64,000 nucleotides of DNA from Escherichia phage WPEC3: sequence record PV611058; one strand, written 5' to 3'. The stretch's first letter is position 1. Each line of letters opens with the position of its first letter. This document shows positions 15,021-15,783 of this stretch, in pieces. Both the position numbers and the translations under genes were made by a program. A model generated the notes under the pieces. It saw only the letters and a list, made by a program, of their open reading frames with translations. It searched no databases and was not told the DNA's origin.

Positions 15021-15052
15021 AAACACAAAAAAGCCCACCGTTTAAGGTGGGC
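15021..15052 (-). terminator. rho-independent terminator
   Basis: hairpin GCCCACC-gtttaa-GGTGGGC followed on the minus strand by TTTTTTGTGTTT. Confidence 0.7.
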
Positions 15053-15074
15053 TAGTGATTCAGTACTTTAATTG

Positions 15075-15557
15075 TTATGCTTCAACTTTGCGATGTGCTT
15101 CGATCCATTCCTCGCGAGTCATACCACTGGAGTTAATCGCGTCCAGTACTACCGCAATGCAGTTACCACGCACCGGAATCAGATATTCTTCCCCGTTGTC
15201 CAGTACTACCGCTACGCGTTCCTGAATCCATTTTTTGGCTTTTACTTCTGGCTTGTCTTCCCCATACTTAACCGCCAGGGCTTTTTGTGCCATCTCTGTA
15301 ACTACTTCCAGATCCAATCCAACTACTGCCGCCTGAATACTTTCGATTGTTGCTTGTAGTTCTGCTTCACGGGCCGCCTTTGCCGCTTCAATTTCTGCCG
15401 CTTTATTTGCTTGTAGTTCTTTCGCAGTACTATAAGCGATGTTAAAATTATTGCGTACCGCTTTCATGGTATCGTTATCCAGTTCAGCCAGGATCTCAGC
15501 CGCGACGTTAGTTTCATTTGCTACCAGTGCTTTGATGAATGATTTTACATTAGCCAT
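15075..15557 (-). CDS. hypothetical Ala/Glu-rich protein (160 aa), predicted coiled coil
   Basis: ATG at 15557 with SD GAGGA; own TTGACA-N17-TAGAAT promoter with about 120-nt leader; own terminator. Confidence 0.65.
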   Translation of the reverse strand: MANVKSFIKALVANETNVAAEILAELDNDTMKAVRNNFNIAYSTAKELQANKAAEIEAAKAAREAELQATIESIQAAVVGLDLEVVTEMAQKALAVKYGEDKPEVKAKKWIQERVAVVLDNGEEYLIPVRGNCIAVVLDAINSSGMTREEWIEAHRKVEA

Positions 15558-15754
15558 TTTATAAATCCTCAATTAAAGTTTAGTTTACGTTTATTAGTGT
15601 ATCAAAGTTTTCTCGACGTGTCCAGTTTTTCGTTCGACTTACTGGCGGTCTACTTAGTGCTCCCCGTCTTGATGTAATACATTCTACGCTTTTCTGTGGT
15701 AATGTCAACTACTTTTTTAAAACTATTTTCAAAGTATCTCAGTACTACGATACT

Positions 15755-15783
15755 ACAAAAACAAAAAAGCCCACCAGGTGGGC
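15755..15783 (-). terminator. rho-independent terminator
   Basis: hairpin GCCCACC-ag-GGTGGGC followed on the minus strand by TTTTTTGTTTTT. Confidence 0.7.

Follow-up and report, generated by a model that had tools for sequence, protein, structure and literature searches.

The minus-strand segment 15021–15784 of a stretch of DNA from Escherichia phage WPEC3 (sequence record PV611058; the whole stretch of 64,000 nucleotides (nt) is called the window here and supplies all coordinates unless another genome is named) is probably a self-contained, monocistronic early unit for an H-NS-like protein. As judged from sequence and predicted structure, this protein would bind AT-rich DNA or co-assemble with H-NS/StpA of the host and in this manner alter silencing. 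The focal gene encodes a protein of 160 amino acids (aa) that is labelled hypothetical in every Asteriusvirus record examined. An earlier sequence-only reading of the window had described the product as an Ala/Glu-rich coiled-coil protein, structural or nucleoid-associated in function. The composition agrees with this description (18.1% Ala and 12.5% Glu). Of the two functions suggested, the nucleoid-associated one is favoured by the homology to the H-NS family presented below, whereas the structural one finds no support, as the orthologue in phage phAPEC6 (gp528c, 97.5% identical) is missing from the published virion proteome of 62 proteins.

Comparison of the phage family with H-NS

The C-terminal 50 residues of the protein resembled the DNA-binding domain of H-NS and, because of this resemblance, the relation to H-NS was tested. 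The alignment of the phage family contained 20 sequences. That of H-NS contained 14 genuine chromosomal or plasmid H-NS sequences which are 35–100% identical to E. coli H-NS; a protein-database search for H-NS gave only matches at least 82% identical, and divergent plasmid H-NS sequences were added instead. Comparison of the two families using hhalign gave a probability of 94.3% (E 9.9e-8) over 119 collinear columns, in which phage residues 27–159 are aligned against H-NS residues 22–137. In a control run, the full-length comparison reached 92.4% (E 5e-7) and the reversed profile 7.6%, while the C-terminal domain alone reached 70% (E 4e-5) and its reversed control 0.6%. Cross-domain comparisons gave 1.1% or less. 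At E<1e-3, a hidden Markov model (HMM) of H-NS matched 20 of the 23 family members, while the reversed sequences gave 3 matches in 23 and the shuffled ones 10 in 460, and the reciprocal HMM of the phage family matched all of the H-NS sequences (128/128), collinearly.

Two orthologues which are 34–37% identical to the window protein, K64-1 gp430 (27.1 bits) and Muenster_011 (25.5 bits), pass the cut-off of 24.5 bits of the Pfam family PF22470 (Histone_HNS_N), and their matches are collinear with the window protein. A relative with 72% identity matches this family at E 0.22 in collinear positions, and the window protein itself has no match at E≤1. The depositors of the Muenster genome recorded an HHpred match of 97.2% to NP_417155.1, which is E. 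coli StpA (PMC5861252).

Structure prediction divides the coding sequence (CDS) into three parts, given here with their predicted helices (H), strands (E) and predicted local distance difference test (pLDDT) values:

15075–15557, minus strand: focal CDS, 160 aa, MANVKSF...HRKVEA
15557, minus strand: start codon ATG
15075–15077, minus strand: stop codon TAA
15267–15557, minus strand: CDS part 1, helical N-terminal domain, aa 1–97 (H2–12, H16–23, H28–77, H83–97; pLDDT about 80–90)
15219–15266, minus strand: CDS part 2, flexible linker, aa 98–113 (pLDDT falls to 58)
15078–15218, minus strand: CDS part 3, C-terminal beta-beta-alpha-alpha domain, aa 114–160 (E114–118, E124–128, H135–144, H148–155; pLDDT 82–87)

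The reading frame is supported by the identity of eight relatives to the window at codon positions 1, 2 and 3 (about 89–94%, 92–94% and 61–75%, respectively). The AlphaFold2 (AF2) model was obtained with a diverse alignment and has a pLDDT of 82.8; a first run with a shallow alignment was discarded, its C-terminal domain having a pLDDT of about 50. The predicted order is alpha1-alpha2-long alpha3-alpha4, a low-confidence linker and beta-beta-alpha-alpha, the last of which we take to be the order of the H-NS DNA-binding domain. In the hhalign alignment, CDS part 1 corresponds to dimerisation site 1 and central site 2 of H-NS. In the site 2 region, GLDLE is aligned with GIDPNEL of H-NS, G80 is invariant in the phage family and AF2 predicts a turn between the helices H28–77 and H83–97; the comparison of site 2 only was weak (21%, E 1e-3). 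The predicted helices fit the N-terminal domain of H-NS, which is a two-site, four-helix domain (PMC6936261). In the C-terminal domain, residues K96/Y97, G104, G113, G127 and F133-L134 of H-NS are aligned with K109/W110, G122, G131, G145 and W151-I152 of the phage protein, and the Gly-to-Gly spacings of 9 and 14 residues in the phage family are the same as in H-NS. We consider that the phage family is likely homologous to H-NS and highly diverged from it, an assignment which these comparisons support well at the family level.

A number of results weigh against this assignment. With the H-NS HMM, a score of only 6.3 bits is obtained for the window protein taken singly, which is within the tail of shuffled sequences, and the assignment therefore leans on the profile of the family. 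In hhalign, the N-terminal half by itself performs no better than its reversed control. There is no match to PF00816 (H-NS C-terminal domain) in 19 family members, NCBIfam gives no match to an H-NS model, and neither the protein nor the profile found a sequence match in the PDB. Foldseek comparison of the AF2 model with the PDB finds nothing (best E 0.8), a result that we regard as uninformative for a 45-residue domain joined to a long helix.

It might be argued from the missing Pfam C-terminal-domain and Foldseek PDB matches, and from the null-range score of the window protein, that the H-NS likeness is convergent or spurious and that we are dealing with an ordinary coiled-coil protein rich in Ala and Glu, with a structural, scaffolding or adaptor role and a small C-terminal domain that binds a partner other than DNA. 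A coiled-coil composition is able to inflate profile scores, and the protein is acidic, with an isoelectric point (pI) of 4.9. However, H-NS itself is acidic (pI 5.4), and the reversed and shuffled controls are far weaker at the family level. The C-terminal domain, which is not a coiled-coil, has an independent signal with matched Gly and aromatic anchors, orthologues pass the curated Histone_HNS_N cut-off, and the protein is not in the phAPEC6 virion proteome. A spurious likeness thus appears very improbable to us. Pfam matches to Tox-PL-2 (E 0.006), DUF3846 (E 0.049), DUF1993 and RNase_H were rejected, being below the cut-offs and inconsistent among the members, and the only PHROGs matches are phrog_27871 and phrog_20181, both of which are function-unknown families.

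Orthologues with 34–41% identity were found by tblastn in the Klebsiella phages RaK2, K64-1 and Muenster (Alcyoneusvirus), in the Salmonella phages Munch, 7t3, PHA46 and SE_PL, and in the Klebsiella aerogenes phage fENko-Kae01, and the orthologue of Yersinia phage fHe-Yen9-03 was recovered by fold search. Foldseek matches in BFVD are confined to the family of the focal protein (Munch-like phages and Yersinia fHe-Yen9-03). Close homologues are limited to RaK2-like jumbo phages, and an exhaustive profile search of 1.84 billion representatives added only about 14 divergent relatives to them. The family motif is GLDLE...KKYG...RV.V.V.G..Y.MP..GN...LKDA...G..R..FI. Two Klebsiella orthologue records already read 'DNA-binding protein'. 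In the literature we found nothing on this protein family, its terminal-repeat position, its altered loop or its control region.

The putative DNA-binding loop and the proposed mode of action

The loop of the C-terminal domain which would contact DNA is encoded as follows:

15162–15170, minus strand: codons of R130-G131-N132, the loop aligned with the minor-groove motif Q112-G113-R114 of H-NS

G131-N132 is invariant across the phage family. The stretch T-W-T-G-Q-G-R-T-P of H-NS is replaced by I-P-V-R-G-N-C-I-A, which does not contain the canonical Q/RGR motif. The equivalent of H-NS Q112 is Arg in the Asteriusvirus clade only, and Ser or Thr in most of the other members. Upstream of beta1, residue R114 of the phage protein (own numbering) is near-invariant in the family. 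Several of these substitutions speak against DNA binding of the H-NS kind. R114 of H-NS is replaced by the invariant Asn and W109 by Ile (Ile or Met across the family). The linker has a net charge of 0 as compared with +5 in H-NS and is therefore not basic, the net charge of the C-terminal domain is -3 as compared with 0, and the Asteriusvirus clade is without a helix lysine that is kept by most family members.

The C-terminal folds of H-NS and of MvaT from Pseudomonas are similar. Asn100 of MvaT superimposes on Arg114 of H-NS and forms, together with Arg80, a minor-groove 'AT-pincer', and the mutation N100A abolishes silencing (PMC4466236). By analogy, Asn in the R114-equivalent position of the phage protein is not necessarily a loss of function. 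The likeness to MvaT/MvaU consists of Gly-Asn at the H-NS R114 position (G99-N100 in MvaT and G131-N132 in the phage protein) and of the upstream Arg, as seen via the H-NS alignment together with the superposition of H-NS and MvaT that has been published. In contrast, the spacing of the phage loop is H-NS-like and not MvaT-like, and the Asteriusvirus clade does not have the 'lysine network' of MvaT. Comparison by hhalign with MvaT, the sequence of which was checked against PDB 2MXE, gave a probability of 0.3% both with the full length and with the C-terminal domain alone, and membership of the MvaT family was therefore rejected. Because MvaT is not detectably similar to the phage family, the parallel is drawn at the level of the motif only.

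In the mode of action that we favour, the H-NS-like protein would self-associate head-to-head and tail-to-tail in the fashion of H-NS, and the R130/N132 loop would bind AT-rich DNA with an MvaT-like use of Asn. As an alternative to DNA binding, the protein might co-assemble with H-NS/StpA of the host. Xenogeneic silencing would in this way be re-programmed in infection, and the targets could be the 36%-GC phage DNA, the early promoter array described below, or host and defence genes.

The replacement of the minor-groove Arg by Asn, the neutral linker and the acidic C-terminal domain would also suit an H-NS decoy or antagonist, in which the oligomerisation scaffold has been kept and DNA binding lost, and which would join H-NS/StpA of the host in mixed assemblies, poison their filaments and protect the AT-rich phage DNA. 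Phage DNA of 36% GC is a natural target of H-NS, early expression from the terminal repeat would fit, and phages need anti-H-NS functions, as exemplified by T7 gp5.5, T4 Arn and LUZ24 Mip (PMC6936261). However, a decoy needs the N-terminal domain only, as in the truncated H-NST, whereas in the phage family it is the C-terminal domain that is conserved best, with the invariant G-N and the near-invariant R114. The N-terminal domain is about 15% identical to that of host H-NS and not significant alone, and hetero-oligomerisation is not obviously preserved. Moreover, Asn at this position is a working DNA contact in MvaT. We therefore regard a decoy as the main, though unlikely, alternative to a DNA-binding or co-assembling silencer. 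T7 gp5.5, T4 Arn, LUZ24 Mip and H-NST would be functional analogues if the phage protein acts by hetero-oligomerisation, but they are unrelated folds or N-terminal fragments, whereas the phage protein has two domains, of which the C-terminal one is strongly conserved.

Among known systems, the phage protein shares with H-NS/StpA, Sfh, Hfp and IncX Hpp the predicted element order of three modules, the collinear profile alignment and the Gly/aromatic anchors of the C-terminal domain. A monocistronic unit and, in the case of the acquired paralogues, carriage on mobile elements are further likenesses. The host hns gene is likewise monocistronic, and it is autoregulated. The differences from H-NS/StpA are an identity of only about 15–27%, the missing recognition by PF00816 and NCBIfam, the altered loop, the neutral linker, the acidic C-terminal domain, a four-residue insertion before beta1, and the carrier of the gene, which is a lytic jumbo phage.

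Homologues of silencers have already been described from phages and plasmids (PMC7074111). The H-NS of phage EPV1, the Lsr2-like proteins of actinophages and CgpS are comparable to the focal protein in that a phage has a full-length silencer homologue among its early genes. It has been proposed that such homologues are used to silence host defence genes or to control phage genes (PMC3097231, PMC7074111), and silencing of host or defence genes has been proposed for the H-NS of EPV1 (PMC3097231). However, the EPV1 protein is a recent capture with 47% identity to the host protein, whereas the RaK2-like family is ancient and highly diverged. A tblastn search of 50,697 phage records with E. coli H-NS gave a mislabelled Salmonella chromosome contig as its sole match, and canonical H-NS is present on >4,400 plasmids. 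Canonical H-NS thus seems to be essentially absent from sequenced phages.

The bracketed unit and its control region

The genome that carries the unit is that of an Asteriusvirus (PBECO4/121Q-like) jumbo phage of the RaK2-like group. The closest DNA matches to the unit region are in the Escherichia phages EC.P1 and Ecwhy_1 (99% identity), and some 35 further Asteriusvirus jumbo phages match it at 80–98% identity. In vB_Ec-M-J, the unit region is within an annotated direct terminal repeat of 21.5 kb. Phage fEgEco12 has a terminal repeat of 20,993 bp which is confirmed by restriction digests (PMC13070987), and mapping onto this genome puts the repeat at about 1.5–22.5 kb of the window, with the unit inside. 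The idea of a Goslar-type nucleus-forming phage with promoters for a virion RNA polymerase was dropped, since the relatives are Asteriusvirus and RaK2-like phages and a sigma factor gene has been reported for phAPEC6. The elements that surround the focal CDS are the following:

15755–15784, minus strand: upstream intrinsic terminator, stem 15784–15768, AGCCCACC-TGG-GGTGGGCT, then T6GT5
15681–15708, minus strand: promoter P1, TTGACA-N16-TAGAAT (-35 at 15708–15703, -10 at 15686–15681)
15558–15680, minus strand: 5' leader, about 117 nt from an inferred start at about 15674 (about 7 nt past the -10)
15596–15624, minus strand: candidate second, weaker promoter, TGGACA-N17-(TG)TACACT (9/12 scan match, extended -10)
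15566–15570, minus strand: Shine-Dalgarno sequence GAGGA, 8 nt 5' of the ATG, invariant in nine relatives
15021–15053, minus strand: downstream intrinsic terminator, stem 15053–15032, AGCCCACC-TTAAAC-GGTGGGCT, then T6GTGTTT
14905–15031, minus strand: structured spacer between the downstream terminator and the next promoter (TTGCAC at 14872)

GCCCACC/GGTGGGC terminators on both sides of the gene had been claimed in the sequence-only reading, and both hairpins are indeed present and conserved, each followed by T6 on the minus strand. The upstream hairpin closes the preceding operon (gene 15791–16021), and the downstream one begins 21 nt past the stop codon. The stems are of 8 bp and 7 bp, with 6 and 5 GC pairs. 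Across nine genomes the stems are kept and the loops are variable, and a compensatory change from C-G to T-A is found at the top pair of the downstream stem in vB_Ec-M-J, UE-S1 and ph0011. The G17 record annotates the downstream terminator (ARNOLD, -11.1 kcal/mol). Structure and conservation together indicate that both hairpins are intrinsic terminators. Terminator-like matches overall are just about 1.7-fold more frequent than in shuffles (14 vs 8.0), and the two of the unit are among the strongest. As there are only about six good minus-strand terminators in the whole repeat, the focal gene is truly the sole gene in it that is tightly bracketed by two of them.

P1 matches the sigma70 consensus at 11 of 12 positions with a 16-nt spacer, and its hexamers are invariant in nine Asteriusvirus genomes. 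Hexamers, spacing and conservation all point to a sigma70-type promoter. The same hexamers had been recognised before with a spacer of 17 nt, which has to be corrected to 16; the leader length of about 120 nt given at that time is close to our value. However, the earlier statement that no other early gene has a promoter to itself is wrong. About 30 near-identical sigma70-consensus promoters of one family are present at 1784–22138, all on the minus strand, and every one of them precedes one or a few small open reading frames (ORFs). The layout of the family is an A-rich upstream region, GTAC, TTG(A/C)(C/A)A, N16, TATAAT, TTTACATC, a GGGGA...TCCCC hairpin and a ribosome-binding site. P1 belongs to this family yet deviates from it, and the deviations are invariant in nine genomes. 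It is the sole member with TAGAAT (unique G in the -10), it is without the family's hairpin in the 5' untranslated region (UTR), and its core does not have the AGTACT motif which 25 of 30 family promoters carry. The focal leader is by far the longest, about three times the length of the other leaders of the family.

A further hairpin with a 12-bp stem, AAAGGGATTGACTCCGGTCAGTCCCTTT followed by GCTATTATAT, is repeated on the minus strand at 1458–1485, 4213–4240 and 7479–7506, with a variant at 12027–12054. It contains a TTGACT -35-like hexamer within the stem and has a TG-extended TATTAT 17 nt downstream, which would make it a second, structurally odd promoter-like repeat.

The sequence of the leader occurs once within the window. 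It is 99–100% identical to that of PBECO4, ph0011, SD-6_S16, A4 and UE-S1, whose CDS are 80–85% identical to that of the window with 61–71% identity at third codon positions, and leader conservation hence far exceeds that of synonymous sites. A riboswitch or other structured RNA was rejected, since an Rfam search of the leader gave no match and its RNA structure is not above that of shuffles (fold z = +1.3). The candidate inner promoter would, speculatively, yield a 5'-UTR of about 32 nt. In the divergent phage JNE01 its -35 hexamer is kept, the -10 has one change and still reads TAnnnT, and the spacer has several changes. The hyper-conservation of the leader could in part be due to recombination mosaicism. 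The neighbourhood is mosaic, with flanking genes that come and go and identity that jumps between segments, and because this is so obvious, selection and recombination are not fully separable at the leader.

The small gene 15791–16021 is missing from G17, PBECO4, JNE01 and SD-6_S16. An extra ORF of 153 nt is situated between the unit and the next gene in G17, JNE01, ph0011, A4 and UE-S1, and there is none in the window (about 14790–15030).

In the predicted fold of the spacer at 14905–15031, a long-range stem of 8 bp (CCACCAGC/GCTGGTGG) is accompanied by two hairpins inside it and by a weak hairpin that resembles a second terminator. Its minimum free energy has a z of -3.2, and none of 200 shuffles was equally stable. 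The spacer is conserved, with covariation at no more than one compensatory pair, and G17 is without exactly one of the inner hairpins. It has no Rfam match and no evident promoter of its own, and it may be part of the insulation.

The GC content of the focal CDS is 45.8%, as compared with 36.3% in the window and 36.6% in its own leader. Ala-rich coding accounts for a part of the raised value, and a foreign origin also fits. In two relatives, G17 and PBECO4, the whole unit of 735 bp is flanked by direct repeats of 54–57 nt (terminator and 5' flank) which are 93–94% identical:

G17 3103–3156 and 3839–3892: direct repeats bounding the unit
PBECO4 453–509 and 1188–1244: direct repeats bounding the unit

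These bounding repeats suggest the insertion or duplication of a cassette and, together with the deviant GC content of the CDS, make the unit look cassette- or moron-like. Phage morons are autonomous promoter-gene-terminator cassettes, classically found in late operons of temperate phages and expressed from the prophage. The focal unit resembles them in its own promoter and terminator, its deviant GC content and, in some genomes, the direct repeats. However, it differs in that the phages are lytic and the gene is an early one which belongs to the conserved core of their group.

It is conceivable that the insulation has no regulatory meaning, that is, that a moron-like cassette has simply kept its terminator on insertion or duplication and is expressed like the other early genes. 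The repeat-bounded unit in G17 and PBECO4, the GC content of the CDS, the mosaic neighbourhood and the membership of P1 in the same promoter family as its neighbours are all in line with such an origin. However, the arrangement is found again at much larger distances. The annotated terminal repeats of Muenster and fENko-Kae01 contain the gene, at a distance of 4–6 kb from the left end, and in the Munch record it is found about 4 kb in. In Muenster and Munch, the gene comes after a terminator and a long stretch of intergenic DNA that has two or three sigma70-like promoters, and another terminator directly follows its stop codon. Because the same layout is present in these two phages, we consider the insulated unit an old, conserved trait. 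The bracketed layout with its own promoter(s) has thus been kept in genera whose DNA is no longer alignable, the deviations of P1 and its leader (TAGAAT, a long leader, and neither AGTACT nor a UTR hairpin) do not vary among nine genomes, and the conservation of the leader goes far beyond that of synonymous sites. An insulation devoid of regulatory meaning is in our opinion improbable. This explanation concerns regulation only and can be combined with any of the readings of the protein, so that its probability and theirs do not add up to one.

The separately controlled expression that had been suggested for the gene is plausible, given the layout kept in Muenster and Munch and the conserved deviations of promoter and leader from the family. 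We propose that host RNA polymerase would transcribe the gene once the terminal repeat enters the cell. The upstream terminator would halt incoming transcription, P1, possibly with the tandem second promoter, would together with the conserved leader drive the 160-aa ORF, and the downstream terminator would end the transcript. The terminators and the atypical promoter and leader might in this way set the dosage of the H-NS-like protein apart from that of the products of about 30 neighbouring early promoters.

AGTACT sites and implications for jumbo phages

The motif missing from the P1 core is strongly over-represented in the genome. The window contains 291 copies of AGTACT, where shuffles have 22 +/- 5, a 13-fold excess, and the copies are densest at 1–28000. 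GTAC, AGTAC/GTACT and CAGTACTG are also strongly enriched, and the extended palindrome is (C)AGTACT(G). The sites are found between genes as well as within them, where they occupy each of the three codon phases. Of the 30 early promoters, 25 have AGTACT at fixed offsets, either overlapping the -35, just past the -35, or abutting the -10. Terminal-repeat fragments of Muenster, K64-1 and Munch, the DNA of which is not alignable with that of the window, have a 15- to 21-fold excess of AGTACT. In the literature searched, we found no report of an AGTACT excess in these phages or of the early promoter family described above.

Two pairs of short direct repeats are present inside the focal CDS, each 57 nt (19 codons) apart (15141–15160/15198–15217 and 15350–15363/15407–15420). 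The peptide AVVLD occurs twice in the protein (residues 116–120 and 135–139), encoded by identical codons that contain GTAGTACTG, an AGTACT site.

Because the motif is 13- to 21-fold enriched, present in 25 of 30 early promoters and absent from P1, one may imagine that the H-NS-like protein nucleates on (C)AGTACT(G), tells phage DNA from host DNA in this way, and shuts early promoters or organises the genome while sparing its own promoter. We regard this as a long shot. The H-NS-like protein, the 'DNA condensation proteins' of the virion and other factors are candidates only for a reader of AGTACT.

H-NS-type silencers are central to the handling of foreign AT-rich DNA by bacteria, and phages are mostly known for unrelated inhibitors of them. 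The lytic jumbo phages of E. coli, Salmonella, Klebsiella and Yersinia appear instead to keep a full-length, diverged H-NS-like gene, whose position in the terminal repeat is conserved and which has an insulated control region of its own. The family escapes routine annotation, its members being 'hypothetical protein' in nearly all records. If the protein does not bind DNA, it would be a new type of full-length H-NS antagonist. If it does, the R-G-N loop would represent a natural experiment in retuning the specificity of the H-NS fold, and in jumbo phages now under development for therapy, the shut-off of early genes or the silencing of the host would have a candidate master regulator in this protein. 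The AGTACT excess is an unexplained genome-wide signal which is easy to test. If nucleation on this motif were true, it would amount to a sequence-targeted variant of xenogeneic silencing, a 'private chromatin' of a lytic virus.

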